A stretch of 63,864 bases of DNA, filler included, from Rozella allomycis CSF55 (Eukaryota), in NCBI GenBank assembly GCA_000442015.1. It is 12 parts of 11 records of this genome, joined end to end, with 100 filler letters (N's around TTAATTAATTAA, not from the genome) between each part and the next. Parts side by side here need not be neighbours in the genome. Positions count along the whole stretch, not along the records: positions 34,872 to 39,026 come from KE561170.1; 11 more parts are not named here. One strand, given 5' to 3'. The notes under the pieces were generated by a model. That model was not told where the DNA came from. It saw only the letters and a list, made by a program, of their open reading frames with translations, and did not search any database. This document shows positions 3,920-61,387 of this stretch, in pieces. Each line of letters starts with the position of its first letter. Position 1 is the first letter of the stretch. The position numbers were made by a program, and so were the translations under genes.

Positions 3920-5227
3920 ATGCCGAAAGCAGAAGCAGGAACCTCTAAAGCTTTGGCTAACAAGATGAAGGTAAAAGATTATAAAAAAATTACTAGTCCA
4001 AAGGGCTTCAAAAGCTGCGGTGGTATTGCCAAGTGTGTGAGAAGCAGTGTCGCGATGAGAATGGTTTCAAGGTACGCATTGTTGTTGAGTCGGAATAGTG
4101 TCATGTATTGTCAGAAGCACATCAGCGACAAATGAAGTTGTTTGGCGGGAATGTTGATAAACAGGTTAATAGTTATTCCAGAGAGTTTTCGAGTGGGTTT
4201 ATATCATTGTTGTCTCGACAGTATGACATGGTGTTTGTGGCAATGTAGATATGGGACTAGAAGAGTGCATGCTAATCATGTGTATCAGGAATATATTAGA
4301 GACAAGCAGCATACGCATATGAATGCTACGAGGTGGCATTCGCTGACTGATTTTGTGTTGTGGTTGGGAAAAGAGCGTATTTGTAATATTGAAGAGACAG
4401 AAAGAGGATGGTTTATTACATGGATAGACAATTCACCAGAGGCGCTAGCAAAGCGGGTAGGTGTTTATTGATTGTTTGAGGATAGGAATTGCAAGAGCAT
4501 AAAGCAAAGGTGGAATTGGATGCGGGGAGGATCCAAGAGATATTGATTAATAGACAAATTGAGAAAGCAAAAGAAAAGGCAAGAGAGTTGAATTTGAATC
4601 TTGAGTTCAAAGAAGAAGAGAAAGTTTTGGAAAGGGAGAATCAAGAAGAAATAATAAAATTAGACTTTAAAGCAATCAAAAGTGGGATTGAATCAAAGAG
4701 TGCATTGAAACCATTAAAGACTATTTTTGATGAAGATGAAGAGAGTGAAAAGGAAGAAGTGAATGAATCTAAAAGAAGGAATGTTTTTGGAGAAATGAAA
4801 GAAAAAGAAGAGAATAAAAAGATGAAAAAAGAAAAAGAAACAGTTTTAGAGAATTGGTTGCATCCGAATATATGGGTTAAAGTGTTGAATAAAGAATTAG
4901 AAGATGGAAAATTTTATAAAAAGAAGGGGATTGTAGTTAAAGTGATTGATAGATTTATAGCTCAGATTGAGATTGAAGATGAACGAGGGAAAGTAATGAT
5001 TAGAATAGATCAAGATGAACTTGAAACTGTAATTCCAGTAAACAGAAATAAAATTTGTTTGTTAAAAGGCTATTGGAAAGAAGGTTTTGATTGTTAATGG
5101 AGAGAGGAGAGGATCTGTTGGAATTTTAGAAGAAATAGATTTTGAGAGGTACAATGCAACAATTAAACTTTCTAATGGAGTTTTGTTGAAAAAGATTCCA
5201 TATGAATATTTTTCTAAATCTATTTAA
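3920..5227 (+). CDS. KIN17: DNA/RNA-binding protein KIN17 (Rts2)
   Basis: Spliced MPKAEAGTSKALANKMKSKGLQKLRWYCQVCEKQCRDENGFKCH; HMNATRWHSLTDFV; C-terminal KOW region; five 26-31 nt introns. Confidence 0.95.
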
Positions 5228-5258
5228 TAAATTTTGTATTTAAAAAGAGTAGATTGAT

Positions 5259-7585
5259 TTATTTGACATCTTCTAATTCAACGAGAATGTCATCAGAAGC
5301 AACGCTTTGATTTTCTTTAACAAGAACAGATTTAACTTTGGCTGCTTTCTGTGCTTTTAAAACATTTTGCATTTTCATTGCTTCTACAACACAAATTTCT
5401 GTCCCTTGAGCAACCTATTGAATTAATCTAACTTTGTTACAATGTCGCCTGGTTTAACAGCCACAGAAACAACAGTGCCAGGCATTGGTGAGACTATCAC
5501 TTTGCTTGTATCTAGCTTTGGTTTTGGTATCATGTATTTTGATAATTCATATTGAGCTTTATTTAAAACTTTCACATCAAACTATTTTTTAATCTATTTT
5601 CTACTTTACTTTAGTTCCAAAATATTGCAATCTATAGCCTGGATCTAATCTATCCAAATATTGAATTGTAATCTTTCCCNTTACTTTGGTTCCAAAATAT
5701 TGCAATCTATAGCCTAGATCTAATCTATCCAAATATTGAATTGTGATCTTTCCCGAATCTGTGGTCAAGTAAAGTAATGGATTTTCTAATTCCCATTCAA
5801 GTTTAAAATTCATTTTATATCCGTTAATGAAAATCTTTAATCTCTTTTTGAAAATATTACGTTTTCATCTTTAAAGTTGATTGAGAATATTTTATCTTTT
5901 ATTAAAACAATTAATTCTTCCATTCTAGTTGGACCATAAGCGTATTTTATTCTTCTAGCTTCATGAACGAATGCTCCAGCTGCTGCCAACTCTAAATAGT
6001 TTTCTTCTGATAATTTATGCCCCTGGAATCCAGATTTGAATTCTTCTGACAGAAATTTAGTTGAAATATTTCCAGACACAAATCTAGGATGTTTTATCAC
6101 TTCTCTCAACAATGGAATATTATGAGTCACCCCTTATAACCCTTATTTATTTATTTAACCTTTTATAACATAAGAATCCAATGCATCAGCCATTGTTTGA
6201 ATAGCTTCATTTCTTGTTTTGCCATGCGTGCTAAGCTTACATATCATTGGATCGTAAAACACTGAAATCTCACTTCCCTTTTACTTGATCATATTTCTCT
6301 TACTTCTACTATTCCAGAATCACATCTAACAATATTTTCATTAGTAGCTTTCGGCTCAATATATTTACTCAACTTGCCAATACATGGGAGATACTTTTCT
6401 GGATCTTCTGCATACACTCTTGATTCCAATGCCCATCCATTAATCTTCACTTCATCTTGCTTTAAAGATAATTTATGTCCAGCTGCAACTCCAATCATAT
6501 GCTCTACCAAATCAGTCCCAGTGATCAACTCTGTAATTGGATGCTCAACTTGCAATCTTGTATTCATTTCTAGAAAATAAAAATTTCTCTGTGAATCTAC
6601 AAGAAACTCAACAGTCCCAGCTGAATTGTACTTGACCTTCTTGGCCAATTGAACCGCTTGTTCTCCCATTCGCCTTCTCGTTTCCTCATCCAACGCTGGG
6701 CTAGGCGCCTCTTCAATCACCTTTTGGTTCCTCCTCTGAATAGAACATTCTCTCTCGGGCAAATATATCTTTAACTCAAAAGCTAAATTCTTACAACGTT
6801 GCCATGATTGTCACCCACCACTTGGATTTCAACATGTCTCGGATTATCAATATACTTTTCAATCAACAATCTATCATCCCCAAAACTAGATTTGCTCTCA
6901 GCTTTCGCTAGTCTATAACTCTCCCTCACTTCACTCTCATTCCACGCTATCCTCATCCCTTTCCCACCCCCTCCAGCACTCGCCTTGATCATAATCGGAT
7001 ACCCTATTTCCTGCGCAATTTCTAATGCATGCTTTTCATCTCTCACAACACCATTAAACCCGGGTATTGTATTCACACCAGCCTTCTTGGCTAGTATTTT
7101 GCTCTGAATCTTATCGCCCATAGCCGCAATCGCATCATATGATGGCCCAATAAACACAATCCCATTCTTATTCAGTTCACTACAAAATTTATCATTTTCA
7201 GATAAAAATCCATATCCTTTTTTCAACACGAAATCAATATACCAGGATGCACCGCTTCAGCTCCAGTCTTCTTTATAGCTTCAATAATTCTCTTCACATT
7301 CAAATAACTTTGAGATGAGGGCGAAGGCCCAACATGCACCGCTTCATCCGCCATTCTTACATGAAGAGAAGACGCATCCGCATCAGAGTAGATTGAAACT
7401 GTCTTGATTCCCATCTTTCTGGCAGTCTTTATAACTCTACATGCTATTTCTCCTCTATTTGCAATCAATATTTTGTTAAACGTCTCTTCTTGCTACATCG
7501 TTTAAATTACCTTGCCATACGAGTAGAACCTCTTGATTGATTCAATATTTAGAAACGGACTTTTCGTTGATTTAAACAATAGCAT
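5259..7585 (-). CDS. PCCA: Propionyl-CoA carboxylase alpha chain, mitochondrial (biotin carboxylase + biotinyl domain)
   Basis: [63 protein letters not shown] biotinylation motif; multiple tiny introns. Confidence 0.88.
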
Positions 7586-7995
7586 TTTGAAATTTACAAA
7601 AATTAATAACTTCAAGTCTATTTGAATGGATCAACAGTTACAGAACAGCATCAACAAACGAGCATAAAATATTAAACCACACATCTCAAAGAGTCAAAGA
7701 CATATGCAAGAGCCATCAGCCAGACTGTAGGCTGATTACTTTCTGGAAGCGTCTACGAAAGGCATGCAGACGTTGTCATATTACTATATATCCGCATTAT
7801 TTTAATGACTAAAAGTAGAAAACTGGAAGTGACTCAAAAACGACATTCGTATATATTTATTGAGGAGCATGAAATTTCTATTGACTGTAAAAAAAGTCTA
7901 CAAATTCAGAACGAGGATATGATGTTGAATGTTCTTTTTTAAGGTTTCAAAATTTGTCGCATACCTTCAGGTTCGAATACCAGCCCTTGTAGAAA

Positions 7996-9807
7996 ATGCA
8001 TTTCCCTCACGAGGTTTGGTTGATTGTTTTGTCCAAGTTAAGTCTAAACAATCTAAAACAGATTTCTAGAACATCACGTGGGCTTCGTTCACTTTGCGCC
8101 GACTCAATCCTTCATCAAGCTCCTGAATTAAGCTGCTCCTGGAAATGTCCGCATGTAATTCAATTTCTAATTCAAATGGGTTGTAATAAGTTGCTTAGCC
8201 TAGATTTGTGTTCGGATATCCTCGCATACAGCGAAAGGTTCATTTGCTTTCTGAATTTCCTGAACCAAAAAGACATTTCTACAAAAACTGTTAATTATGC
8301 ATTCCAGTTTGCATGCCAATATGATCTAATGTGTGCTTTCCAAGAGAGTCTAATGAGGACCAACTGCCATCGGAAGTTTGGGAATTGTATTCAACCCGAT
8401 CCTTCAGCAGACGAAAGCAATGCAATAAGATTAGCCGCAGAGAATGGACACGCAGAAATTGTTAATTATCTGCTAACCGAAACAAGAGTTGACCCCAGTG
8501 CTGTACATGATGAGGCAATCAAGGTTGCTTTTGCGAAAGGTCACGACAACGTTATTAAACTATTACTCAAGGATTCTAGAGTTGCTCCGAATGCAGGGAG
8601 TTTTAATGCTATTTCTTGGGCTTGCGAGAAGGGTTATGCAGACTTTGTCAAACTTTTGCTAGCCGATTCTAGGGTAAATCCTTGCGTAGATAACAATTAT
8701 CCTATTCAGACGGCTTCTAAGAACGGCCATGTAGAAGTTGTAAAATTATTGCTGGAAGATCCTAGAGTCGACCCAAGTGCAGAACACTGTAAAGCTATCA
8801 GACTTGCTTCTGATAAATGTCACAGTCGTATATGTCACAGTAGTAAACATTACACTAGCAAACGTCACGCCGATATTGTCACACTCTTACTGGCAGATTC
8901 TCGAATCAGTGTACATGAATTGGATAGAGTGCATCTTGTGTTTTCTCGCTACGATGATTCAAACGTTGTCGATCTTTTGCTTGCCGATTCCCGAGTAAAT
9001 CAAATTAAAAAAGACTATATTTCTTTTCTGCATGCCTATCGAAACGGCTACACAGATGTTGTTAAACGTTTACTGGAAGAATCTAGGGTTGATCCTAGCG
9101 CAAATAATAACATGGCTATTCGAGTGGCTTCCATACATGGCTACGAGGAAATTGTTAAACTTTTAATGCAGGATTCGAGAGTAGACCCAAGTGACTGGAA
9201 CAATCATGCTATTACTCGGGCTTGTGCCAATGGTCATGCAAATATCGTCAAACGTTTGTTAGCGGATTCTAGGGTAAATCCATGCACACATAACCTTATA
9301 TCAGCCTCCCGTAATGGCCATTTCGAAGTTGTTAAAATATTACTAGAAGATGCGAGAGTTGATCCAAGTGCGAACGACAATGATGCTATTCAGCAGGCTT
9401 CCCGTAATGGCCATTTCGAAGTTGTTAAAACATTACTTGAAGATGCTAGAGTTGATCCAAGTTCAAATGCCAACTATGCTATTCGATCGGCCTCCGAGTG
9501 TGGACATGCAGATGTTGTCAGAATATTGCTGAAAGATCCTAGAGTTGATCCAGGTATACAAGGCAATTTTGCCATTAAGTATGCTTCCTCTAATGGCCAT
9601 ATAGATGTGGTCAAACTTTTGCTTAAAGATTCTAGAGTAGATCCATGCTCAAATGACAATAATGCTATTCGCGCGGCCTTCAACCACGATCGTGATGATG
9701 TTGTCAACTTATTGATCCAAGACGCTAGAGTTTTTGCAAGGGCACTAGAAAACGGTACTTTATATCATTTTATATCATATTTGTCGGATTCTGAGAAGTC
9801 TTGTTAA
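7996..9807 (+). CDS. F-box-like N-terminus + ankyrin repeat protein (DSRVDPSA-type), intronless
   Basis: MHFPHEVWLIVLSKLSLNNLKQISRTSRGLRSL F-box pattern; repeated AIRxASxNGHxEVVKLLLEDSRVDPS. Confidence 0.9.
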   Translation: MHFPHEVWLIVLSKLSLNNLKQISRTSRGLRSLCADSILHQAPELSCSWKCPHVIQFLIQMGCNKLLSLDLCSDILAYSERFICFLNFLNQKDISTKTVNYAFQFACQYDLMCAFQESLMRTNCHRKFGNCIQPDPSADESNAIRLAAENGHAEIVNYLLTETRVDPSAVHDEAIKVAFAKGHDNVIKLLLKDSRVAPNAGSFNAISWACEKGYADFVKLLLADSRVNPCVDNNYPIQTASKNGHVEVVKLLLEDPRVDPSAEHCKAIRLASDKCHSRICHSSKHYTSKRHADIVTLLLADSRISVHELDRVHLVFSRYDDSNVVDLLLADSRVNQIKKDYISFLHAYRNGYTDVVKRLLEESRVDPSANNNMAIRVASIHGYEEIVKLLMQDSRVDPSDWNNHAITRACANGHANIVKRLLADSRVNPCTHNLISASRNGHFEVVKILLEDARVDPSANDNDAIQQASRNGHFEVVKTLLEDARVDPSSNANYAIRSASECGHADVVRILLKDPRVDPGIQGNFAIKYASSNGHIDVVKLLLKDSRVDPCSNDNNAIRAAFNHDRDDVVNLLIQDARVFARALENGTLYHFISYLSDSEKSC

Positions 9808-14201: not shown

Positions 14202-15748
<1,547 letters not shown>

Positions 15749-15783
15749 TTGTGGCTTGTTTAGATATTGTGAAAACAAAAATT

Positions 15784-31261: not shown

Positions 31262-32511
31262 AGATGTTTTCTTGTAAGTACCGTAACATGTCTGGAAATA
31301 TGTTGCTGTTGTCTGGACATTCCATCCAGTGTCGTTGGGTTTCCTCAGGGTTGTTGCACCTGACGCAAAGCGTATGATGCGGTTGTTTTGAGTTTGTTGG
31401 TAGTGCATTTGAGAAGTACTTTATTCGGAACGAGGTTTCTTTAGTTGAAATCGACAATTTGTTGTTTTGCTTTGGGTGTATGAGTTTTAATGTGAGTTCA
31501 TGTAACGTGTCTTCGAGGGGCGCTCCGAAGTACTTTTCGAACGCTTTCTGTATAGTTGAGAAATTGTTGTTGTGATAAAGAAGTCCAACAATTGTCTTCG
31601 GTCTGTTCTCATATCTATAGTTGTTGTGGTGTATGTATGTAAGGGTGTGGGGTTTGTCCTTTCTGTAGTGGTAAATTTTTTGTTTAGTTGCTGCGTTTGC
31701 TGCGTATTTTGCCCATTTGTCAGCCGTCTCATTCCATCGTTTACCTGCATGTGCTTTGACTTTTATGAGTGTGAGCGGAGCGGACCTTTGTGACAGGAGG
31801 TGTTGTAGCAGGTCCAGTAGAAGTTGGTTATTATATTTGAGTCGGTCTTTTTCTGTCCAATTAATGTGTTGCTGTATATATGCAATCATGTTAATGCTGT
31901 TTTGTGAGTCTGTGAAAATGTCAATCGGCGCGTTATTTGGTGTGTTCGTCAAACATTTGATAATAGCCATGAGTTCGGCCCTCGTGGAGTTCAGGGGACC
32001 TTCGATGTTAGTCAGAATAACCTTTTTCATAAACCCTGAGTTGGTATTGTCGTATTTGTAGTTTTGGATTTGTAGGGCGCTTGCACCTTGTTTACGTGTT
32101 TGTAGGTCAGTGGAACCATCGGTAAAGTACGTTATGGGGTGTCCAGCTCCACCCATCAGTACATTAGTGCGAAGGGGTGGTATTTGGTTTTGAAATGTTT
32201 CTCCGGTTTCCGACTCGTGTCGGAGGTCCCGAAGTCTCTTTCGAGTTTTTTTGCAATACTTTGATTTTAGTGGCATAATGGTATTAGAGTTTATATTGCA
32301 CGGGTTTTCGCAAAGAAGGTCGTAAAGAATTAAATAAGCCGTAGGTACTAAAGCTGATGTTTGTTCTTCGAGTTTCTCGCGCGTAGCTAGATTACGAATT
32401 CTGGTTTTAAATTGATTAAACGACATGAGGCATGTTCCGTGGTTAGTTGTCACGTCTTTAAGTGTGTGTATTTTCATTCTTTTTAGGTCGTTGCACACAA
32501 GTGGGTATAGG
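31262..32511 (-). mobile_element. Non-LTR retrotransposon fragment (RNase H + C-terminal Cys/His knuckle)
   Basis: YFTDGS...STRAELMA...IFTDSQ...KVKAHAG...NETADKWAK; CVRCNNPEETQRHWMEC; higher GC than surroundings. Confidence 0.85.
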
Positions 32512-32610: not shown

Positions 32611-33850
32611 NATGTTTGCAAGGACATGTGTTAAAGTAAAACAAAGCTCCATATGTGTAAAAGCAAGAATGTCGACAATGGAAAAAAAACTTTAGACATA
32701 TTTATTAAAATTTGGATTTACAAGATCAATACGTGATTGGTGTTATATGAAAAACGTGGCCACCACAAAGTACTTTTTCTTGCAGTGTTTGTTGATGATA
32801 CGATAGTTGCAAACAATGATCCTAAACTATATGATGAATTGATAAATAACTTAGAGCAAGAATTCAAAATAAAGTATTTAGCTGAGCTTCGAATAAAATA
32901 AAATAGAAAGAATAGATAATGTCACTTAGCCAACAAAAGTATATTGAAGATACACTAGTACACTTCAATGTGGATGGATGCAAATGTGTTACAAAGCCAC
33001 AAGATCCAAGTATCAAATTGTCCAATCAAATGTGCCCAATAATTGAAGAAGATAAAAGAACGATGCAAGAAGTTCCATATAGAGAGACAGTGGGTAGACT
33101 TAAATATTTAGCAGGATGTACAAGGCCAGATATTATGAATGCTGTTATTCAAAAATATGTTGGAAACCCGGGATGGTCTCACTGGATAGCAGTGAGGAGG
33201 ATACTTACATACCTTGCTGGTACCAAAGATTATGGAATAGTTTACAGAGCTTTAAGAAATTGCCAAAATAAAATAGAATAACATGATGCGTCTGATGCGA
33301 ATTATAATGAGGATATGGACAAGCGTAGACTAACTTCAGGATATGCATTCTTCATCAATCAAAATCTTGTTTCGTGGAAATCAACAACGCAGCAGTGTGC
33401 TACCCTTTCAACCAAGGAGGCTGAGTATGTGGCGGTGTGCACAGCCACACACGAACTACTGTGGCTAAGGTATTGATTAAGAGAGATAGGTTTTGAACAA
33501 AATTATCCAACCAAGATTCAAGAAGATAATGAGTCGGCAAAAGCATTAGTTAGTACAAACAAGTATCATTCAAGAACAAAACATATAGATACAGTACTTC
33601 ACTTTATTAAAGACAAATATGAAAACGGAAAACTTTTAGTTGTGAGTTGCAATTCGGAGGACATGGTGGATGACATCTTTACGAAAGGACTTTACAAAGC
33701 CTTATTTGATAAACATAGATACACAGGGAAATTCAAAATGTATCTAATTTAGAAGACTTATCATTACGGAAGGATGTTGGATTTAATGATTAGTCAGGAA
33801 ACTACTACTAGTGATGAAGACTCTAGGAAGCAATTTGAAATATCGTAAAT
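32611..33850 (+). mobile_element. Degenerate Ty1/copia LTR retrotransposon (RT/RNase H, PPT and probable start of 3-prime LTR)
   Basis: LSQQKYIE, VPYRETVG, TRPDI, DANY...KRRLTSGY, SWKS...LSTKEAEYVA, SRTKHID with stops/frameshifts; purine tract then TGTTGG at 33775. Confidence 0.85.
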
Positions 33851-34692: not shown

Positions 34693-34879
34693 TCTACGCT
34701 TTCTCTCCTTTTGCACACCAAGCAATAATTTTTTACACATATTATATTAAAATATTTTTGATCACATATTTNNNNNNNNNNNNNNNNNNNNNNNNNNNNN
34801 NNNNNNNNNNNNNNNTTAATTAATTAANNNNNNNNNNNNNNNNNNNNNNNNNNNNNNNNNNNNNNNNNNNNCATCTCTG

Positions 34880-35110
34880 ATGACAAAGAGCGAGTATCCC
34901 GACCAACCACCAAGTTATCAAGAGGTTTTAAAAACACAAAATGATATTTATGATTATTCGAGACAAAGTAGTTTCGTTGAAGATGAAGATGAGTTTTCAC
35001 AAAGAGTTGAGGAGGAAGACTGCTGCACTCTTAAAGATACCGCTTCTTGTTGTCTTGAGGCTTGTCTCTACGTTGTATGTTCTATCTGCATTGAAAACGC
35101 ATGCAAATAA
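34880..35110 (+). CDS. Small PPxY + Cys-rich-tail (CYSTM-like) protein
   Basis: PDQPPSYQEV...EDCCTLKDTASCCLEACLYVVCSICIENACK. Confidence 0.65.
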   Translation: MTKSEYPDQPPSYQEVLKTQNDIYDYSRQSSFVEDEDEFSQRVEEEDCCTLKDTASCCLEACLYVVCSICIENACK

Positions 35111-35284
35111 AGTCCTTGATTAAATTCTGAAACGAAAATTTCTTATTAAATAATACATGATTTAATAATTAACTGATTCTATTTTAATCATCTATGATTC
35201 TATTTCACACGCCACTCTTCAGGTAATATTTTTATGAATCAATCGGTCATAAAAATACATTTTACGTTCCAGCCACAAGTTCAG

Positions 35285-35548
35285 ATGAATTCAAAGAACG
35301 AGAATCCCGACCAACCACCAAGCTACCAAGAGGTTTTAAATATCAGGAATGTCAGAAAGACTATTTATGATTCTTCGAGACACCGTAATCTCGCTGAAGA
35401 TGAGTTATCACAAAGCGACGAGGAAAAAGACTGCTGCATTCTTAAAAACATTACTTTTTGTTGTCTCCAAACTTGCCGTGAGACTTTACGTCATATGTGC
35501 AATGGAGAGCTCCGGCCAATTTATTACTCCACGAGGCCATCATCCTGA
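35285..35548 (+). CDS. Tandem paralog of the PPxY/Cys-rich protein
   Basis: MNSKNENPDQPPSYQEV...DCCILKNITFCCLQTC; AGCCAC 8 nt upstream of ATG 35285. Confidence 0.65.
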   Translation: MNSKNENPDQPPSYQEVLNIRNVRKTIYDSSRHRNLAEDELSQSDEEKDCCILKNITFCCLQTCRETLRHMCNGELRPIYYSTRPSS

Positions 35549-35690
35549 CTAAAATTCCTGATAGATAAGATAAATACTTGAATACTTGATTTAATTGATT
35601 CTATTTTAATTATCCATTTCACATTAAATGCATCCAATTACCATCTCTTTGAATTTTATCAAATATCCAAATCAAAACCCTGGTAATTAA

Positions 35691-38562
35691 ATGAGTGACG
35701 AGATTGTACCTCACCACCATACGCGCAACCGCACAGGTCCGCGCGACAAGAGCGAGCGGTATACGAATGATGCCAAGGTGAATGAGTTGTGGGACCGGTG
35801 CAATACGTCTGAGCCATTGGGTAAATGCCGTGTTGATTTGCGATAGATGTTGAGCATATCCAGCGATCGTTTGTGCGCCATACGACGACGACATTAGGGC
35901 GCACGCATTTCAATGTGGACAAGCTGGCGGCGTACCAGGCGGTGGCACATAGGTAGGCGGTGTTTTGATGTGGTGAGATAGGTAATTGAGTGGATTTTGA
36001 GTGAGATAGGTAAAGTGTTGGGGGTTGGATGAGATAGTGTGAGGGATTTGCTGATTAGGATGTGGAATGATACGCAGCAGCATCATACGCATGAGGATGT
36101 GAAGCGGGTGTATTATTTGTCGCTTGAGTTTCTGTTGGGGAGATCGTTGGACAATACGCTGTTGAATATGCAGTGCAAGGATCTGTATAGAGGTAAGGAG
36201 ATGTGGTGGATTGGAAAGATGCGTTGAAGGGACTGGGATTTAGACTTGAGGATCTGATTGAAGAGGAGTGTGATGCAGCGTTGGGTAATGGAGGATTGGG
36301 ACGGCTTGCTGCGTGTTTTATGGATTCGTTGGCTAGTATGGATTATCCAGCGTGGGGGTATGGGTTGAGGTATACGTATGGGATATTCCAGCAGAGGATT
36401 GTTGATGGATATCAAGTGGAGTAAGGGGATTTGTACACTAAAATTTAGATATCCAGACTTTTGGTTGAATTTTGATAATCCGTGGGAGTTTCCGAGATTG
36501 GATGTTGTGTATGAAGTTAGGTTTTATGGGAGTGTGACAAAGATATCTGATTCGAAGGATGAGACAGCCAAGTATTCGTGGGCTGGAGGAGAAGTTGTGC
36601 AAGCAGTAGCGTATGATGTTCCGATTCCTGGATGGAATACGAAGAATACGATTAATATAAGATTGTGGAGTTCGAAGCCCAAGAAGAAGTTTGATTTGAA
36701 GTCGTTTAATGAAGGCAATTATCAAAAGAGTGTTGAAGAGCAGCAAATGGCAGAGAATATAACGAGTGTGTTGTATCCGAATGACAATACAATGGCAGGG
36801 AAGGAATTGAGATTGAAGCAGCAAGTAAAAAGGATTGTTTGAATTGAGATAGTATTTCTTTATTTGTGCAACGTTGAAAGACATTGTGAGAAGATTTAAA
36901 AAGATGGGACATCCATGGAAAGAGTTTCCCAATAAAGTGGCGATCCAGTTGAATGATACGCATCCATCGCTTTCTATTCCAGAGTTGATGAGAAGATTAG
37001 TTGATATTGAAGGTAAGAAGAGATTGAATATGATTTAAAGGGTTGCCATGGGATGAAGCGTGGGGGATTGTGACGAGAACGTTTGCGTTTACTAACCATA
37101 CTGTGTTACCAGAAGCGTTGGAGAAGTGGCCAGTTCCAATGATGAATAGATTGTTGCCAAGACATTTGCAGATAATATATGATATTAATTTGTATTTTCT
37201 TCAGAATGTAGAAAAGATATTTCCAAATGATCGTGACAAGTTGAGTAGAATGAGTATAATTGAAGAGGGATATCCACAGCAAGTGAGAATGGCTAATTTA
37301 GCTGTGATTGGATCTCATACAGTTAATGGAGTTGCAGAGATTCATTCTCTTCTTGTTAAACATGAAATATTCAAAGATTTTGTTGATTATTTTGGAGTAT
37401 TAAAGTTTCAGAATAAAACAAATGGAATAACTCCAAGAAGGTAAAAGAATTGAATAGATTTGAATAGATGGTTGTTGCAAGCTAATCCAGGGTTGAGTGA
37501 GTTGATAACAGAAGCTTTGGGGAATGATGAGTGGATTGGAGATTTGAGTTTGTTGAAGGGATTGAAAAAGTTTGCAGATGATGAAATATTCCAAGAGAAA
37601 TGGATTCAAGCAAAGTATTCAAGCAAAGAAAAGTTGTGTCAGTACATTAAAGATGTTTGTGACATTCAAATAAATCCAGATTCTATTTTTGATGTTCAAG
37701 TTAAAAGAATTCATGAATACAAGAGACAATTCATGAATATTTTAGCTGTCATCCATTCTTATTTACAATTAAAGAATTCTTCTGTTGAAAAGAGAGAATC
37801 TTTCATTCCAAGAACTGTAATTTTTGCTGGAAAAGCTGCCCCTGGTTATTATATTGCTAAACTAATAATAAAATTAATAAATTCTGTTGCTGATGTAGTC
37901 AACAAGGACAAGGAAACAAATCAATTCTTAAAAGTTGTTTTCATTCCTGATTACAACGTTTCTGCTGCTGAAGTCATCATCCCTGCCTCTGATGTTTCTC
38001 AACACATTTCAACTGCTGGCACTGAAGCTTCTGGAACGTCAAACATGAAATTTGTATTGAATGGTGGGTTAATCATTGGAACCCTCGATGGAGCAAACAT
38101 TGAAATCAAAGATCAAGTGGGCCAAGAAAACATTTTCATCTTTGGCTGTCAAGCTCATCAAGTCAATGACATCCGTCACACCCAAAAGTATTTAATTAAT
38201 TCTTTCTTTCATCATCCAGGTACAGAAAATTGGTCTTGAATCCCTACTTGGAATCTGTCATTGCTGCGCTCAAAGAAGATCGCTTCTGCAAATGGGAAAT
38301 CATTGCTCCCCTGATTGAAACTCTAACTGTTGGCGGTGATTTCTATTTAATCTCCCACGACTTTCAATCTTGTAACAATTCATTGCTTTCTTTATTAGAT
38401 TTGGAAGCTATTTCCAATGTTCAAAAATCTTATCAGGACAGAAGAGGCTGGGCCAAAAAGAGCATTCTGGCTGCTGCTGGAATGGGCATGTTTAGTTCTG
38501 ATAGAACCATCAAAGAGTATGCGCAGGATATTTGGAAATTGACGCCTTGCAGAGTTCCATAA
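35691..38562 (+). CDS. GPH1: Glycogen phosphorylase
   Basis: [76 protein letters not shown]; multi-exon. Confidence 0.97.
35953..36037 (+). other. 85-nt intron made of three tandem GT..GAGATAG micro-intron units
   Basis: Units 35953-35981, 35982-36009, 36010-36037; removing all three restores HS-VRD. Confidence 0.85.
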
Positions 38563-38795
38563 ATTGAATTTGATTTGACTTTTGGAGTTTATAATGTGAA
38601 TATTTTTTAGTTATTTGAGACTCTTTTTAGACTCCAGCAAGGCAGGTTAGTTTCTTCATTCGTACTTTTTATTTTGTCGCTTGTATCATCTTTAATGTTT
38701 TTAAATATTTTTTATATCGCAATATAACGTTTTAACTGCATTTCAACTTTAAAATAGAACATCTTTCCTCCAGTTCAACTTTTTCACCCCGGCTC

Positions 38796-39013
38796 ATGAT
38801 CATTCCAGTTCGCTGCTTCACTTGCGGCAAAGTTATCGGCAACAAATGGGACGACTACCTCTCTCTCCTGCAATCAGATCATTCAGAAGGGTATTCCTCT
38901 ACTTTTAAATTCATTTAGCGAAGCACTCGATGCGCTAGAACTCAAACGGTACTGCTGCCGCAGAATGCTTCTGTCGCACGTCGATCTCATTGAAAAAATG
39001 CTGCATTATAATA
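38796..39013 (+). CDS. RPB10: RNA polymerase I/II/III subunit Rpb10 (3-prime truncated by gap)
   Basis: [18 protein letters not shown]...[19 protein letters not shown]; absent from ORF track because of an intron. Confidence 0.96.
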
Positions 39014-39126
39014 GTAATATTTTTTANNNNNNNNNNNNNNNNNNNNNNNNNNNNNNNNNNNNNNNNNNNNTTAATTAATTAANNNNNNNNNNNNNNNNNN
39101 NNNNNNNNNNNNNNNNNNNNNNNNNN

Positions 39127-41302
39127 TAGAACGTCTCGCTGTCTTCGATCCCTTTGCTCCGACTTTATTCTTAACCAACCGCCCACAGTTACTTGCTCGT
39201 GGAAATGCCCATATGTTATTCAGTATCTAATCAAGCAGAGATGTGGGAAAGTGTTAACCAAAGATATGTGCTCGGATATCCTCTGCGATAGCGAGATAGT
39301 TAAAAGGCTCGTTGCATTTCTGAACTGTCAAAAACAAAACGCCTTGTCTCAAAACTCTGTTAACCATGCGTTCCAGTTTGCATGCCAATATGGGATATTG
39401 GAAATGACCGATGTGCAAGATAAGATGGTGATACGCTGTAATCGAAAGGTCTTTATTGCTGAGACCAGTATAAAACCTGATCTTTCTGCAGACGATAACT
39501 ATGCGATCAGATTAGCTGCGAAAAATGGGCACACTGATATTGTGAAGTATCTTTTAACAAAACCAAGAGTGGATTATGAAAATTGTTCTACTCCGATGAC
39601 ATTTAAATATGGTCGTTCAGATGTTGTGCTCGCCGGTGATATGGGAGTGGATCCAAGTGCAATAGACAATGAAGCTATTCGATTTGCTTCCAAGAACGGT
39701 CATGTAGATATTGTCAAAATTTTGCTTGAAGATTCAAGAGTAGATCCAAGTGCAATAGACAATGAAGCTATTCGATTTGCTTCCAAGAACGGTCATGTAG
39801 ATATTGTCAAAATTTTGCTTGAAGATTCAAGAGTAGATCCAAGTGCAAGAGACAATGAAGCTATTCAATTTGCTTCCAGGAACGGCCATTTAGATATTGT
39901 CAAAATTTTGCTTGAAGATTCAAGAGTAGATCCAAGTGCAATAGACAATGAAGCTATTCGATTTGCTTCCAAGAACGGTCATGTAGATATTGTCAAAATT
40001 TTGCTTGAAGATTCAAGAGTAGATCCAAGTGCATTTTCCAATTGTGCCATTAGGGTTGCTGTAAGTTGCGGGCATATTGAAGTTGTCAAACTTTTGCGTG
40101 AAGACTCTAGAGTAGATCCAAGTGCGAATGACAATTGTGCCATTAGGCTGGCTTCAGGTAATGGGCATATTGAAGTTGTCGAGTTTTTACTGAAACAGTC
40201 TAAAGTAGATCCAACTGCAGAATCCAATCGTGCCATTAGGCTGGCTTCAAGTCACGGACATATTGAAGTTGTCGAGTTTTTACTGAAAGATTCCAGAGTA
40301 GATCCAAGTGCGAATGACAATGAAGCTATTTGCTTGGCTTCATGTCGTGGGCATATTGAAGTTGTAAAGACGTTGCTAGCAGATTCAAGAGTAGATCCAA
40401 GTGCAGGTTCCAATTGTGCCATTCGGACTGCTTCAGGTAATGGGCATATTGAAGTTGTCAAACTTTTGCTTGAAGACTCTAGAGTAGATCCAAGTGCGAA
40501 TGACAATTGTGCCATTCGGAATGCTTCAGGTAATGGGCATATTGAAGTTGTCAAACTTTTGCTTGAAGACTCTAGAGTAGATCCAAGTGCGAATGACAAT
40601 TGTGCCATTAGGAATGCTTCAGGTAATGGGCATATTGAAGTTGTCAAACTTTTGCTTGAAGACTCTAGAGTAGATCCAAGTGCGAATGACAATTGTGCCA
40701 TTCGGAATGCTTCAGGTAATGGGCATATTGAAGTTGTCAAACTTTTGCTTGAAGACTCTAGAGTAGATCCAAGTGCGAATGACAATTGTGCCATTAGGCT
40801 GGCTTCAGGTAATGGGCATATTGAAGTTGTCGAGTTTTTACTGAAACAGTCTAAAGTAGATCCAACTGCAGAATCCAATCGTGCCATTAGGCTGGCTTCA
40901 AGTCACGGACATATTGAAGTTGTAAAGACTTTGCTAGCAGATTCAAGAGTAGATCCAATGTCTTTTGAAAATTATCCTATTTTCTTGGCCGCTGCTAACG
41001 GTCACACGCCAATAGTTAAAATCTTGCTTGAAGATTCTAGGGTCGATCCATGTGCTGCATTAGGCCCTTACGCTATTTGGAAAGCTGCTGAAATGGGACA
41101 TGCGGAAATAGTTAAAATGTTACTAGAAGATTTTAGAATAGATCCAAGTACATGTGACAATCAAGCTCTTCGACGTGCTTCTAAAAACGGTCACACGGCC
41201 ATTGTTAAAATGTTGTTGGCAGATTCTAGAGTACGCGATCATCAATCTAAGCGAATCAAGAGGAATAATCCTGATGTATTAAACGTTGCTGGCAGAATAT
41301 GA
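39127..41302 (+). CDS. F-box + ankyrin repeat protein, paralog (5-prime truncated)
   Basis: RTSRCLRSLCSDFIL...CSWKCPY matches the 7996 gene; long array of 34-aa DSRVDPSA ankyrin repeats. Confidence 0.9.
39650..40960 (+). repeat. Tandem 102-bp coding repeats (ankyrin units), several near-identical
   Basis: Units repeat GATCCAAGTGC...GATTCAAGAGTA at 102-bp period. Confidence 0.9.
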
Positions 41303-44542: not shown

Positions 44543-45772
44543 TTACAATATACCTGTTTCTTTTAGCGCTTTAGAAAGGATAGTGTCTTGTACTGCTGCG
44601 AAAATGTGTTCAATTTGCTTTGTATCGGTAGCACAAGTTAAATGTGGATAGATCATAAGGTTTGAAGTATTCAGCGCCAAAAATTTTTCTTTTATAAATT
44701 CAACGCCTTCATCAAAAGTCGTTCCTTTTCAAAGTTAAAGACTTTCCTTTTACCTTGATACTCGGGAAAGTATTTGTTAATTGGGGAGACTTGGATCTTT
44801 TTTTCAAATATATCCATTTTGTTTAAAAATAAGACAATTGAAGAATTTTGAAACCATCTACTGTTTACGATCGATTCGAACAATACTAAACTCTCAATTA
44901 ACCTATTCTGGGTGAATCGGACTCGTTTGAATTACTTGTGTGGAATCTTCAATCAGAGTTTGGTCATACTCACTTAATGATACAATGTATATCACGGAAG
45001 TAACATTTTCGAAACAATGTATCCATTTCTTCCTTTCTGATCTTTGCCCACCAACATCAAACATGCTCTTATCACATAACTAAGAGATTACTGAATATCA
45101 ACAAGGCCCATCCTAAACCTAATTTCAGCGATACCAGTTGTTTTTATTCTTGCTTTTAGAATATCTTGCGTTGAGGGGACATAATTGGGGTCTGCAATAC
45201 GTTCAACATTGTCAAAAAAGCTTGTCTACAATCAAAGATTTCTTTACTAAGCACTGGAATCTATAAAATATGCCACTCGCATAAGTTGATCAAAAATATC
45301 TTTCACGCCCAATTCATTCCATAAATATGATACCATTTCTTTTATCTCTGGAGGCAGAACTAAACAATTCAAATCGTAATTTAACATGCTCGCATCTTCT
45401 ACATATTTCTTCTTTAAACCCCAAATTTGTTCTTACTTTTCCTAACTCGTCGTCAAACTCCGCATTTATATTTTTTAGGGTTACAGCTGTCTGCTTCAAT
45501 GATTCTGTTAAATTTCTGAATATGTCAGGTCTAAATGCTAATAATTCTTCATTAGAATATCCATCTTGATGTATAATTTTCATTTGTTTCACAATCGTTG
45601 ATTTTCCGGACTCTCCAGACCCTTTTCAGTCATTATTTATAAGGATACCAAGTAAGAGTATTTTTATGATCTTGTCTTTGTTGGTTTCTTCATCTAATAT
45701 TTGCTTATCTATCAGGTTATTGATTCGCCTTTGTTCAGCCAATTCTGCTGACAAAGAACATAAATTGCCCAT
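44543..45772 (-). CDS. Heterotrimeric G-protein alpha subunit
   Basis: [51 protein letters not shown]. Confidence 0.95.
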
Positions 45773-45843
45773 CAGGCCCTTAGCAACAAAGCTCAAAGTT
45801 AAGAAGAACAAAACACAAAGTAATAGAGTCCAAAACTGTTTTA

Positions 45844-47070
45844 TTACATTAAACATACACTTCCTAATGACTTAGCAGATATAAAATCTCGTGTGCTGTC
45901 AAATACTTTCTTGACTTTATTTGTATCCGTCGCACATGTGGTATGAAAAAATATCGGAAGTTGGTACTTATTTTCGGCCATGAATCGTTTTTTAAAATAT
46001 TTAACAACCGAATCAATAGTATTATCACCTATGTAAAAAAATAAACTGTATGTTACCAACATAATCAGTAAAATATTTCGATAGAGGAACTACAGTTAAT
46101 TTATCCTCTGTTAACAAATCGATTTTGTTAAAGAAAAGAATGAATGAGCAGTTCAGCAATCGCAAAGAGTTAACCAAAGAGCCAAAAAGTCTTAGTGCGT
46201 CGTTTATTCGGTTCTACATCACATATATAAGAATAAATTACAACTGATGAATCTTCTGCCATGACTTGATCGTATTCATTAATAGCAACGAGAAAAATAA
46301 CGCTTGTGATATCATCCATGACATGGATCCATTTTTTTCTTTCAGTGACTTGACCACCAACGTCAAATACTCTATAATTGTATGAAAATAATTCAGTTAC
46401 TTGAAATTAAAGCCCCCATCATAAAAAGATACAGAAGAGATACCAGTAGTTTTTGTTCGACACCGAATAATATCTTCAACTGTAGGTACATAAGTAGGTT
46501 GGATTAAACGATCAACATCACCCAAAAAGCTAAAATTGAAAATGCGTCACAAAATTACTATTCAGCTGAATCTAGAATATATGTTGTCCTGCGCAGTGTA
46601 TTTATATTTTCCGACAGTAAATTCCAAATATACTTGATTGAAATCAATTGTTCATTTGAGATGGATTTCACTGGCTCGTACAAGTTAACTTTCATTATTT
46701 TATTTATATGAATCTAATTTTTTTCAGGGTTATATAATTTACTTTCGTCTCTTCATCTACATTGGCAGCGCCAATTTTGACAAACTCGTACACTGATCTA
46801 CATAATTGTTGCACAGCCTCAAAAATATTTGTGTATACGTTTTTTCGAAACCTCATTCGTTCTTCTGTTGAAAAGCCACCCAAATAAACTATCTGAAGTT
46901 GCTTTAGCAAGGTTGTTTTCCCACTTTCACCTGGGCCTTTGTATTTTTAGAAAAACTAAAATACCTGTAAGTAGGACTCTAATTTCCCTTGAAAAATTAG
47001 ATTTATGAGCCTTTATATCTTGGTTAATTCTAAAATTTCTGTAACGAGCTTTAAAATTAAAACAGCCCAT
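45844..47070 (-). CDS. Second, divergent G-protein alpha subunit
   Basis: [50 protein letters not shown]. Confidence 0.92.
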
Positions 47071-47245
47071 ATCGCGAACACCGTGGCTAGGAAGTGGCGC
47101 AGTTTTCATCTGGAAATTGGATATTAATAGATGAAATGCCATTAATGGCATGCCATTGGTCCTATCTTTTTATAGTAATTCATCTAATCTATTTTTTAAA
47201 CTGCCAAATTCGATTGAATTCAATTTTTTGAAATTAGTATTTATA

Positions 47246-55104: not shown

Positions 55105-55875
55105 AGCGAAATCGTCATTGGCACTCGGGTCTACTCTAGAATCTGAAAGCAATAGTTTGACAACTTCTACATGGCCTTTATAAGAAGCCCACCGAATAAC
55201 GTCTTGGGCACTTGGATCTACTCTAGAATCTGCAAGCAAAAGTTTGACAACATCCGCGTGGCCGTTCGCGGAAGCCGATCTGATAGCGAAATCGTCATTG
55301 GCACTCGGGTCTACTCTAGAATCTAGATGCAAAATTGTGCCCCCGTTTCTGGAAGATACAAATATGGCATAGGATTCTGTTGTTGGTAGAGAATTATCTT
55401 TTCGAACACTATTTTTCGTGTGTATGACATTTAGATCATATCTACATGCAAACTGAAATGCATAGTTAACAGCGTTTTGAGAAATGTCTTTTTGTTTCAT
55501 GAAGTTCAAAAAGCTAACGAACCTTTCACTATACTCGCTGTAGTTGAGAATTTCCCGGCAAATATCTTTAGTTAACATTTTGGCGCATCTTTGTTTGAAT
55601 ATATATTGGATTATATATGGACATTTCCAAGTACAATGTAATTNTTTGAGAATTTCCCGGCAAATATCTTTAGTTAACATTTTACCGCATCTTGTTTTGA
55701 ATATATATTGGATTATATATGGACATTTCCAAGTACAATGTAATTCAGGTGCTTGATGAAGGACAACGTTCATACAAAGTGAACGAAGCCAGTGGGATGT
55801 TCTAGACATTTGTTTCAAATCATTTAGCGGTAAGTGTGACAAAATTATCAGCCAAACTTCATGTGGGAAATCCAT
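55105..55875 (-). CDS. F-box + ankyrin repeat protein, third paralog (3-prime truncated)
   Basis: MDFPHEVWLIILSHLPLNDLKQMSRTS...CTWKCPY...DSRVDPSANDD. Confidence 0.9.
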
Positions 55876-57795: not shown

Positions 57796-58515
57796 ATGGG
57801 GTTACCAAAGTCTGTAGTTTATGCGTATGCCATTTCGATAACACTATTTTTTGTCAACTTTTTTGTGTGGGTATTTGATATTCCAGGTGTGTCAAATCGT
57901 GGATTGCTTCTTTCTACTAGCCGCTACCATAGGAATGATTTTGGATTGGAATTGATATGCAGCTCTTTTCCATATTTAAGCTTTGTCGTTGCTGTTCTTT
58001 TTAGCAACTCTTTTATAATGTTCATGTCCACTGTGTATGGCACATTCCAATTTGGATATGCTTTGGCCAAATGGTGGATTCCGTAACAAAATGATTATTG
58101 TATAATGTAGATACTTTGTTGGAGGAAGCAATTACTTTTGGGGTGTGAAAGAATTAGCCGAGTATAGAATTTTGTATCCACACCATTTTGCAAATCCAAT
58201 TTTGCCTAGAATACATGAAAAATTCATTGTTGTTCCTGGTGTTGAAGAAATCATTGTTTTGTTGTTATTGGCTAGCTTGGTGTACTTTTCATGGAAGGCT
58301 ACCTCATGTGTGTTTACTATTGAAGCAGGAGACAAAGAACGCTTGGCTGGGCTAGGGGCATCAAATAAGAGATCTCCAAGCAAAAAGAAAAGTAAAAGCC
58401 CAAACAGAGCTGATACTCCANTTGAAGCAGGAGACAAAGAACGCTTGGCTGGGCTAGGGGCATCAAATAAGAGATCTCCAAGCAAAAAGAAAAGTAAAAG
58501 CCCAAACAGAGCTGA
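57796..58515 (+). CDS. Multi-pass membrane protein of unknown function (3-prime truncated)
   Basis: MGLPKSVVYAYAISITLFF...KWWIP/YFVGG...; about 4 TMs and a basic tail. Confidence 0.65.
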
Positions 58516-58615
58516 NNNNNNNNNNNNNNNNNNNNNNNNNNNNNNNNNNNNNNNNNNNNTTAATTAATTAANNNNNNNNNNNNNNNNNNNNNNNNNNNNN
58601 NNNNNNNNNNNNNNN

Positions 58616-61387
58616 AATTAATGAAGAATCATTTAATGAAATTAATAAAGAATATCAGAAAATGAAAATTGAAATTTCAGAAAAAGAAAAAGAGATTGAA
58701 AAGATTTTAAATGAAAATAAAAGATTAGAAAATGAGATTGAAGAATTTAAAAATAGAATTGAAAATTATAAAAAGATTGAAAATGAGAAAATTCAAGTAA
58801 GAAATAGAAATTGAAAATATAGGAAATTGAATTTATGAATAAAGAGATTGAAGAGTATAAAGAAAAGAATAGAGAGATGATTGAAACAATGAAGAATAAT
58901 TCAGTTATTGTAGAACAATCACAAAAGAATTATGAAAGAGAAATCACGTGTCATGCAAATGATTTGAAATTGTTAAATGAAGTTAGAAACAATCTAAAAA
59001 GTTTACAAGATGAATTTAATAAATTTAAAATTGAGAAAATTAAAGAGATTGAAGAANATGGCATTGAAAAAGAGAGAGGCGCAAGTTTGAATAATAATAG
59101 TTTGAATACTACAAGTTCAAACGCTAATAGTTCTAACCCTTCAAACCCACTTATTCCAACTAATACTTCAACGTTAAATTCATTGGTAGAGTTTTTGAGA
59201 AGAGAAAAGGAAATGATTCAAATTCAATTAGAAATATCAGAACAAGAAAAGAAGAGAAATTTGCTTCAAATGGAAAAGATTAAAAAAGAAAATGAAGAAA
59301 TAAAATTAGAAATGAATAATAATAAATTTGAAATTGAAAAAAATAATCTATTAAAAGAAATGATGAACAAGACAAATCAATTAAATTTATTAAAAGAAAG
59401 TAATTCAACTTTAAGAAGAGAAAATGAATTAAATTTTAATAAAATAAATGAATTAAAGAATGAAATTGAAAAGATTAAATCTGAAAAAGATCCATTGGAA
59501 TTAAAGTGTTTGGAATATGAAAATGTTTTGAATAATTTAAGAGAACAAGAAGTTTATTTTAAGAATGAAATTGGTGTTTGGAAAAATAGAGTTGAAAAGT
59601 TAATTGAAAGGAATTCAACCATTAAAGAATATGAAATGAAATTAGAAGAGAGTAGGCAGAGGTTGGAGGAGAGTAAGAGTAAGTTGGTAGAGAGTGAGAG
59701 AAAGATGGTAGAGTATCAAAGTAAATTGCAAGAGAGTCAAAGTAAATTGGTTGAGACTCAAAATGCTTTGAAAGAATCTCAAAGTGCTTTGAAAGAAGTA
59801 GAAACAACTTGCAAAGAAAGAGAGAAATCGTTGAGAGATAATTTGAGGGAATATCAATTGAAATTAAATCAAATTCAAAATAAAACTTTAATGGAAAAAG
59901 AAGCTCAAATTAAATCTCTTAAAGAATCATTAAAAGAAAATGAATCTAAATCTTATGGGCAACAAATTCTATTAAAAGAAAAATCAATTCTAGAATCTCA
60001 AATTAAAAGTCTAGAACAAAAGATAAAGAGTCTAGAAGAAGCCTTGAAATCAAGTCAAACAGAATTAAAATCAAATCAAGAAGCACTAAAATCAAATCAA
60101 GATTTAAATAAACAATATTCAGAAAAGATTGAGAAATTTAGAGAAACAATGAAAAAATTAATTCCTTTTAAAAATAGAGCAATTGAATTGGAAAAATTAC
60201 TAAAAGATTCAAATTCCAAAATTTCAAATCTGGAATCTCTCAATAAAGAAAAAAATGAAAATAGTCAATGGAAATCTAGATATGAAACTTTATGTGAATT
60301 AGTTAAAAAGAAGGCAAAAGGAAATTTTGAAGTTGTTGAAGGGGTTGAAGTGAAGGGTGAAGCTGTTGAAGTTGTTGAAAAAGTAGAAGAAGACAGGGTA
60401 GAGAAGTTGAAGACTGAAATGGTTGTAGAAAAGGATTCCGTGAAAGAAAATGATAACACAGTCAAAGATGCAGAGAAAGTTGTTCAAGATACTAATGTTG
60501 CTTCTATTGAAACAGTTGATGTTAAAATGATTGATAGTCAAACAAAAGAAGAAAGGGTTACAGTTATTGAAACAGTTAATGAAACTGTTCCAGTTAAAGA
60601 AGATGTTTCTGTTAAAGAAGATGTTTTAGTGTCAAAGGTTGCTGAAAGTACAATGCAAGAATCAACTACTACTGAAATTAAAAGTGAATCTATGAAATCT
60701 ATTGGTGACATTCCATCTTCATCTACTNATCTTCATCTACCCAAATTCAATCTAATGAAAACATTGTTCCTGAAAAAAGATCTAGAGAAGATGATGAATT
60801 GGATATTCTAACTACAAAAAAGACTAGATCTGATTTAAATACCCCTGAATTCATTCAAGAAGAAATAACTAAAGAAACTGAAGGTCTAGTTGAAGAAGTC
60901 AATAATGTAACAGCTAATGTTAATGAAGAAGTAAAAGGCAATGATGTTAGCGATGTTGTCTTGAAAGATAACAATGTTACAGATAACAATGTTAATGATG
61001 TCGACTCAAAAGATGTGGATTTAAAAGATCTAAACTCAAAAGATGCCGACTTAAAAGAGGTTGAAGAAGAATTACAACTTGAACAAGTGGAAGTTGAAAA
61101 GGATGAAGAGGTTGACGATAACATTGAATCAGAAGACAAAGAATTAGAAGAATTGGGCGAAATTAAAGACACTGACGACGACATTAAAGAAAAACCAAAA
61201 TTTACTCCCATTGAATTCCATGAACCACCCCAAAAATCTCCAATCTCTGCTGGTAGAGGCAGACTAGCCCAAAGAAACAGAGCAGCTTCAAGTATTTCTT
61301 TTTAATAATCTTTAATCATTAGATGCCCCCGTAAGAGGTACTAGAGGTGCCAGAAGACCTTATAAGCCACCACGTGGAAGAAAATAA
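58616..61387 (+). CDS. Nuclear basket protein Mlp1/Tpr (5-prime truncated)
   Basis: QKNYEREITCHANDL, FLRREKE, LNLLKESNSTLR; coiled coil, acidic tail, RG-rich end. Confidence 0.85.

Follow-up and report, generated by a model that had tools for sequence, protein, structure and literature searches.

The DNA analyzed here is a window of 63,864 bases from the genome of Rozella allomycis CSF55, a parasite of the water mould Allomyces and kin to the microsporidia; it comprises 12 contigs, with linkers of the form N44-TTAATTAATTAA-N44 between them. On its plus strand lies a glycogen phosphorylase gene that is interrupted, at positions 35953-36037, by 85 nucleotides (nt) which the initial annotation had parsed as GTA...GAGATAG three times in succession, in units of 29, 28 and 28 nt. 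Re-reading of the sequence at these positions gave the same parse. A curated model of the gene, in which the 85 nt are treated as one intron position, contains 854 codons and no internal stops (0), and its remaining eight introns are 26-32 nt long. Residues 10-854 of the curated product align with a metagenome locus (L006, described below), and its N-terminus aligns with eight fungal homologues.

The features of the gene on which the analysis draws are listed below. Unit scores were obtained with a simple intron model of ends and length and are ranked as percentiles among 72 other introns. X1, X2 and X3 denote runs from three studies, their kind guessed as DNA, whose Logan contigs span the array without a joint.

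35691..38562, plus strand: glycogen phosphorylase gene, curated model with 10 exons, 9 intron positions and 854 amino acids
35847..35952, plus strand: exon 2, ending ...GCA CAT AG, i.e., A, H and the first two bases of the S codon; not in the 777-residue public models
35953..35981, plus strand: unit 1, a predicted 29-nt micro-intron, GTAGGC...TGAGATAG; intron-model score 8.9, 14th percentile of 72
35975..35985, plus strand: internal junction 1, a predicted zero-length exon, GAGATAG/GTAA at 35981/35982; unchanged in the X1, X2 and X3 contigs
35982..36009, plus strand: unit 2, a predicted 28-nt micro-intron, GTAATT...TGAGATAG; score 14.9, 93rd percentile of 72
36003..36013, plus strand: internal junction 2, a predicted zero-length exon, GAGATAG/GTAA at 36009/36010; unchanged in the X1, X2 and X3 contigs
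36010..36037, plus strand: unit 3, a predicted 28-nt micro-intron, GTAAAG...TGAGATAG; score 13.9, 71st percentile of 72; 27 nt long in the second allele
36038..36192, plus strand: exon 3, beginning T GTG AGG GAT, i.e., the last base of the S codon followed by V, R and D
36825..36852, plus strand: ordinary 28-nt intron of the phosphorylase gene, the sole GAGATAG-ending intron among the 72 others

Removal of the array from the transcript

The first 260 residues of eight full-length fungal phosphorylases were employed as tblastn queries. The match upstream of the array stops at 35947 in three of the eight and at 35950 in five of the eight, and the downstream match begins at 36036 in seven queries and at 36039 in one. 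Across the 85 nt, query residues are contiguous or nearly so, running from 91 to 92 in P0006, from 95 to 96 in P0010 and from 87 to 88 in P0016. The interruption of the segment AYQAVAHS-VRDLL, proposed at the outset, was confirmed by these searches. The eight fungal proteins are continuous over ...AYQAVAH/SVRDLL..., and positions 35953-36037 must therefore, on this comparison, be absent from the mature phosphorylase messenger RNA (mRNA). The exons upstream of the array match homologue residues 16-95, and exon 2 is 46-62% identical to the homologues.

The public protein models describe this region differently. The exon at 37469-38185 (239 codons) is 100% identical to the NCBI record P0001, 'glycosyl transferase [Rozella allomycis CSF55]', of 777 residues; a second public phosphorylase record, P0241, has the two residues found in the window. 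Both public records, each 777 residues long, start at a Met directly after the array and lack an N-terminal stretch of 77 residues with conservation in other fungi. Both also translate the in-frame 27-nt intron at 38372-38398 as nine residues.

Retention of at least one unit leads, in all seven combinations, to a stop two codons past the H. It had been stated earlier that removing only one or two units breaks the reading frame. This needs correction as far as the frame is concerned, since in two combinations 57 nt are retained and the frame is not shifted; a stop follows nonetheless, and in that respect all seven partial products are alike.

Each unit has GT..AG ends and a score within the range of real introns, the lengths of 29, 28 and 28 nt lie near the mode, and removal of the units restores the frame. 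The description of the array as units with the size and ends of introns, lined up at one intron position, therefore stands. The introns of the window were collected by a strict search for spliced open reading frames (ORFs), in which introns of 20-45 nt with the pattern GTA..HAG were allowed, and which returned 58 chains with 94 introns. The census retained chains scoring at least 200, minus the three units and one wrong call, plus two introns supported by homology, giving 73 introns in total. Of these, 54 are 26-29 nt long, 10 fall at 21-25 nt, six at 31-36 nt and three at 41-44 nt; one of the last three precedes the first position of the eIF6 profile and is probably a false call. Donor position 4 is A in 55 of the 73 introns.

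A three-unit parse by chance is unlikely: with the outer GTA and TAG fixed, units of the form GTA..HAG and 20-40 nt in length were obtained in 265 of 300,000 composition-matched shuffles. The 11-mer GAGATAGGTAA has two copies in the whole window, counting both strands, and these are the two internal junctions. No stable fold of the 85-nt RNA was found (minimum free energy -2.5 kcal/mol, z-score +1.92), with 200 of 200 shuffles folding at least as well, and a search of 35600-36400 against Rfam gave no family at E up to 1. Neither a hidden RNA gene nor a structure bridging the ends of the array is therefore supported.

Ends, interiors, alleles and relatives of the array

When the units are aligned at their 3' ends, the terminal 8 nt (TGAGATAG) are the same in all three (8 of 8 positions). 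The interiors show three-way identity at 2 of 17 sites and pairwise identity at 5-7 of 17, where about 6 of 17 is expected by chance from the interior composition. The ending GAGATAG is not a general intron consensus; it occurs in one of the 72 other introns, located at 36825-36852 in the same gene. The initial annotation had held that the internal AG/GT junctions were kept while the interiors diverged, and this agrees with the shared terminal 8-mer, with interiors at the random level and with alleles that keep the ends. Judged by this pattern, the internal AG/GT junctions look constrained. Either the units are old duplicates, their ends held by selection and their interiors drifted to saturation, or they are working introns of one kind that entered separately; on both readings alike, the internal sites would therefore be functional. 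A simple tandem repeat or minisatellite was ruled out by the low three-way identity of the interiors together with Tandem Repeats Finder, which returned 0 rows at the array at a minimum score of 30.

The contigs from the three studies bear on both the assembly and the alleles. An assembly error had been named as a possible source of the triplication; X1, X2 and X3 all cross the array, and the triplication is not an error. In X1 and X2, no listed difference falls inside the array. The X3 contig represents a second allele, in which the array carries four substitutions (35958 C>A, 35996 T>G, 35998 T>G and 36000 A>G) and a 1-nt deletion at 36018; none of these changes lies in GTA or TGAGATAG, and every junction is retained. 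Over the curated model, the listed substitutions (n = 30, at 35887-38268) comprise five intronic and 25 exonic ones; beyond the listed differences, the 4155-nt stretch holds 17 further differences and three further indels. Among the exonic substitutions, 23 of 25 are synonymous and 24 of 25 affect the third codon position. In exon 2, all four allelic differences are synonymous third-position changes, and exon 2 is therefore selected as protein in a frame that needs the removal of the array.

The origin of the array was traced in metagenome contigs. The scan returned 80 loci, in 43 of which both flanking exons were matched. There was no insertion at the array position in 41 of the 43, a result that is uninformative, as many of these loci may be complementary DNA or stem from intron-poor organisms. 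One locus (L019) has an additional 213 nt at this position, with a weak upstream match. The other (L006, 6543 nt, GC 0.53) shows 65% identity over residues 79-854 and carries an additional 29 nt at the array position. This insertion is one 29-nt GTA...TAG intron; it splits the codon following H behind its second base, sharing codon and phase with the Rozella array. The intron position is thus old, and a single micro-intron once occupied it. The array may thus have grown from a single intron of about 28 nt, located after residue 78 in phase 2; the simplest route would be tandem duplication of the whole intron in two rounds, which the 4-nt ATAG common to the exon end and the intron end would favour.

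Several further observations concern the same contigs. The phosphorylase of the uncultured organism behind L006, known from the metagenome, has micro-introns of 29 and 33 nt at 570-605 and 1024-1056; the first of the two is the intron at the array position. The stretch 34872-39026 is represented by two haplotypes, about 1% different, and the window matches X3 at some sites and X1/X2 at others. Between the phosphorylase and the next gene, the X1 and X3 contigs carry 102 other letters for 89 nt (38609-38697). Among the listed runs that contain the gene, none is recorded as RNA. An RNA-labelled run, X9 (a metatranscriptome, word share 0.00), contributed three pieces only, of 36-47 nt within 37700-37746, each with 2-4 other letters and unlike flanks; it is uninformative on the gene.

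A second locus and the proposed stepwise splicing

Adjacent micro-introns were also found in a kinase gene on the minus strand, where the strict search placed two introns 2 nt apart:

14202-15781, minus strand: NDR/Cbk1-type kinase gene
15028..15054, minus strand: kinase upstream micro-intron, 27 nt
15026..15027, minus strand: kinase 2-nt exon GG, with CAC AG + GG + AC giving H-R-D
15000..15025, minus strand: kinase downstream micro-intron, 26 nt

The exons flanking this pair align with residues 146-225 and then from 228 onward of yeast Cbk1 (PDB 4lqp_A), leaving two residues between them, and with residues 51-129 and then from 132 onward of human STK38 (6bxi_A), i.e., two residues for six bases. 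RD is present in 87 of the 88 homologues showing the motif, the lone exception being the public Rozella model (STD). Both public Rozella kinase records contain one 50-nt intron and read H-S-T-D in the catalytic HRD motif. Separate excision of the 27-nt and 26-nt introns is the only GT-AG solution that restores HRD, and one-step removal with the same product would, from the sequence, require TA..CA ends. An exon in the 1-3-nt range thus rebuilds a conserved protein motif at this locus, and the sequence implies that each of the two adjacent micro-introns must be removed on its own. Their removal is probably sequential, because a 2-nt exon presumably cannot hold two spliceosomes at once. Given separate excision at the kinase, it is plausible that the 0-nt junctions in the phosphorylase gene are handled likewise.

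For the phosphorylase array, we consider it fairly probable that the 85 nt constitute a head-to-tail array of three self-sufficient spliceosomal micro-introns, derived from one and each excised alone. Like any other intron of 26-29 nt in this genome, each unit would be recognized across the intron and excised singly. Each excision would re-create AG/GTA, and three successive reactions, in any order, would yield the same mRNA; this would amount to recursive splicing with two exons of zero length. Where the CATAG exon end meets GTAATT or GTAAAG, AG/GTAA results, the commonest donor type, and the 5' splice site is regenerated. Stepwise rather than one-step removal appears to be the best reading of these sites.

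A number of points weigh against this proposal. Stepwise removal is inferred from the DNA sequence by itself. The donor of unit 1 is weak (14th percentile), and unit 3 is without any copy of YTRA, a motif that is not enriched: it occurs in 34 of 72 introns versus a shuffle mean of 28 of 72, and no branch-point motif could be defined from these introns. The allelic test is weak as well, since all five changes in the array fall within 52 unconstrained of its 85 positions and avoid the 33 end positions, with p of about 0.08. Along their whole length, the similarity of the units to one another is unremarkable: by alignment score, the unit pairs come 80th, 81st and 142nd among 2850 intron pairs, and shuffles scored as well in 187, 398 and 694 of 5000 cases. 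The common descent of the units therefore rests on their shared ends alone. The census, limited by design to introns of at most 45 nt, is silent on an upper length limit and on longer introns. In related microsporidia, a 76-nt intron is reported to be spliced better than short ones (PMC6349667), so that long introns are possible in the lineage.

That 76-nt intron speaks at the same time for removal of the 85 nt in one step, from the first GT to the last AG, with the internal junctions as unused relics of duplication. The mature product would be the same, the donor of unit 1 is weak yet acceptable, and the annotators' public kinase model itself has a 50-nt intron in this genome. We regard one-step removal as rather unlikely. 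Unused junctions should decay like the interiors, yet the terminal positions are all identical and the interior ones mostly are not (8 of 8 versus 2 of 17), and the junctions are kept in both alleles. Since units 2 and 3 outscore most real introns, the spliceosome would need to ignore strong sites nearby, and at the kinase the 50-nt solution destroys the HRD motif. A quite improbable alternative is that the array serves as a regulatory device, in which three weak and mutually interfering introns are spliced slowly or leakily and the output is tuned through retention and RNA decay. The stop two codons past the H in every partial-retention product would suit such a device, and abutting sites could not all be occupied together, judging from the size of the spliceosome. 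The immediate stop, however, is a consequence of a GTA start at a phase-2 position (AG+G, then TAA or TAG), there is no sign of regulation in the data, and the same layout in an unrelated kinase gene is easier to reconcile with a mutational origin than with a switch specific to one gene. To an artefact, whether a triplication by assembly error or upstream exons that lie outside the gene as in the 777-residue model, we assign next to no credence. Both public proteins begin at a Met just past the array, as this explanation would have it, but contigs from three runs and three studies cross the array, and the upstream exons match homologue residues 16-95 with allelic differences that are all synonymous. 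The artefact explanation is already refuted.

Removal of the units one by one could be part of a more general property, which we put forward as a doubtful conjecture, along the lines of the length-measuring spliceosome suggested in the initial annotation. The spliceosome of Rozella, and perhaps that of other micro-intron lineages, may have a hard upper limit of about 40-45 nt, and introns may lengthen only in quanta, as arrays of micro-introns with 0-2-nt exons between them. Such arrays would arise through microhomology duplication of whole introns and be cleared by obligatory repeated splicing. If this holds, intron lengths should be quantised genome-wide, with steps near 27, 55 and 83 nt, and duplication of whole introns would add a so far undescribed way in which introns are gained.

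Known systems and the remaining window

Drosophila ratchet points provide recursive splicing at zero-nucleotide exons in large introns (bioRxiv 10.1101/006163), and in fission yeast two zero-length-exon cases are reported, with a 336-nt intron in SPNCRNA.445 (bioRxiv 10.1101/226894). The initial view that recursive splicing is described mainly for very long animal introns has to be widened by the two yeast cases. In its sequence, the Rozella layout matches recursive splicing at zero-length exons. As in fly and yeast, a 3' splice site is directly adjoined by a 5' splice site, and once the upstream segment is cut out a 5' splice site would be remade; the yeast junction is conserved in related species, and the Rozella junctions are present in both alleles. 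The systems differ in scale, however. Long introns are cut into unequal segments in fly and yeast, whereas the 85 nt of Rozella would be removed as three equal minimal introns in any order. Intermediates were observed in the fly and yeast cases, and the Rozella array is so far known as genomic sequence only.

Fungal stwintrons and complex intervening sequences likewise consist of several U2-type units that are spliced consecutively, and duplication of the donor element is proposed as their origin (PMC7138796). The phosphorylase array resembles them as a fungal multi-unit intervening sequence. In a stwintron, however, the inner intron splits a splice signal of the outer one and the order is fixed, whereas the signals in Rozella are unsplit and the units adjacent rather than nested. 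Identity with a stwintron was ruled out because each unit has an uninterrupted GTA start and TAG end.

Exons of 1 nt have been reported from Arabidopsis (PMC4674806) and from CYP621A of Fusarium (PMC12940212). The 2-nt exon of the Rozella kinase is like these ultra-small exons in that it rebuilds a conserved motif and was overlooked by automatic annotation. Its flanking introns are both minimal, at 26-27 nt, and the phosphorylase array reaches the limit of 0 nt. With respect to length, the units of 26-29 nt and their narrow spread resemble the very short introns known from microsporidia, ciliates and myxozoans. Rozella is among the fungi covered by a survey of single-cell genomes in which the median intron length was lowest at 29 bp, the species not being named in the passage (PMC8042348). 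Term look-ups in PMC13644364 and PMC13685798, two papers of 2026 on very short introns, turned up neither tandem nor abutting micro-introns; 'tandem' has no hit in the former and 11 in the latter, where the 10 shown refer to tandem duplication of genes or genomic stretches. In the literature searched, which covered micro-introns with recursive splicing and tandem or abutting introns, no account of minimal introns arrayed in tandem was found.

If the units are removed singly, the phosphorylase array would present recursive splicing in its smallest possible form, and recursive splicing may follow from a spliceosome tuned to introns of about 27 nt, not just from giant animal introns. With its three equal units, its two alleles and a one-unit relative, the array offers a natural test of intron-length measurement. 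Whole-intron tandem duplication is indicated as a means of intron multiplication. The arrays of the phosphorylase and the kinase both defeated public annotation, and splice models that accommodate adjacent introns and exons of 0-2 nt are required for annotating the genes of Rozella and probably those of other genomes with micro-introns.

Elsewhere in the window, blind scans for more adjacent pairs returned 115 and 87 candidates, mostly within open reading frames, and homology backed only the kinase pair among them. A candidate third abutting pair, 33425-33469 and 33470-33489, the latter ending in GAGATAG, belongs to a low-scoring chain and is unconfirmed; the largest exon of this chain has no Pfam match. 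A short ORF on the plus strand at 33334-33848 looks like a retroelement polymerase fragment by appearance only, with no Pfam match, and a nearby ORF on the minus strand (31263-32510) encodes an RNase H domain.

For 50 of the 58 chains, the largest exon was searched against Pfam; about 20 genes could be named, none of them in need of a long intron, which is a weak negative because many chains had no match. Permissive spliced-ORF searches with introns of up to 130 or 250 nt were discarded, as they chained through intergenic DNA and wrong strands. The strict search also made errors of its own. In the phosphorylase gene, it picked 36370-36391 over the homology-supported 36421-36448 and overlooked the in-frame 27-nt intron at 38372-38398. 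It broke the G-alpha gene at an intron with the acceptor triplet GAG, and it misplaced a 23-nt kinase intron, giving PEGIF where the public model has PEVF.

Introns with unusual ends occur in two genes on the minus strand. A 27-nt intron with a GTT start (6133-6159) joins two exons of a biotin-carboxylase-type gene, whose Pfam profile positions are continuous across it, and a 26-nt intron with the acceptor triplet GAG (45066-45091) lies in the gene for a G-protein alpha subunit. The latter gene, at 44543-47169 on the minus strand, is split by no fewer than 13 micro-introns, each 23-29 nt long, over some 2.6 kilobases. Three large ankyrin-repeat-rich genes are intron-free, at 7993-9804 (plus strand), 39128-41299 (plus strand) and 55105-55854 (minus strand); the first of them begins with an F-box.

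The N44-TTAATTAATTAA-N44 spacers carry stops in six of six frames, and the rest of the window contains 28 single Ns and one run of 174 Ns. Over its first 2 kilobases or so (35750-37700), the coding strand of the phosphorylase gene is strongly G-rich and C-poor, with a GC skew of +0.32 to +0.56, which falls to about 0 mid-exon near 37700 (37700-38560 compared). A transcription-linked, strand-biased mutation process is one guess at the cause. An absolute skew of 0.28-0.35 is found as well at 4001-6000, 6001-8000 and 58001-60000.

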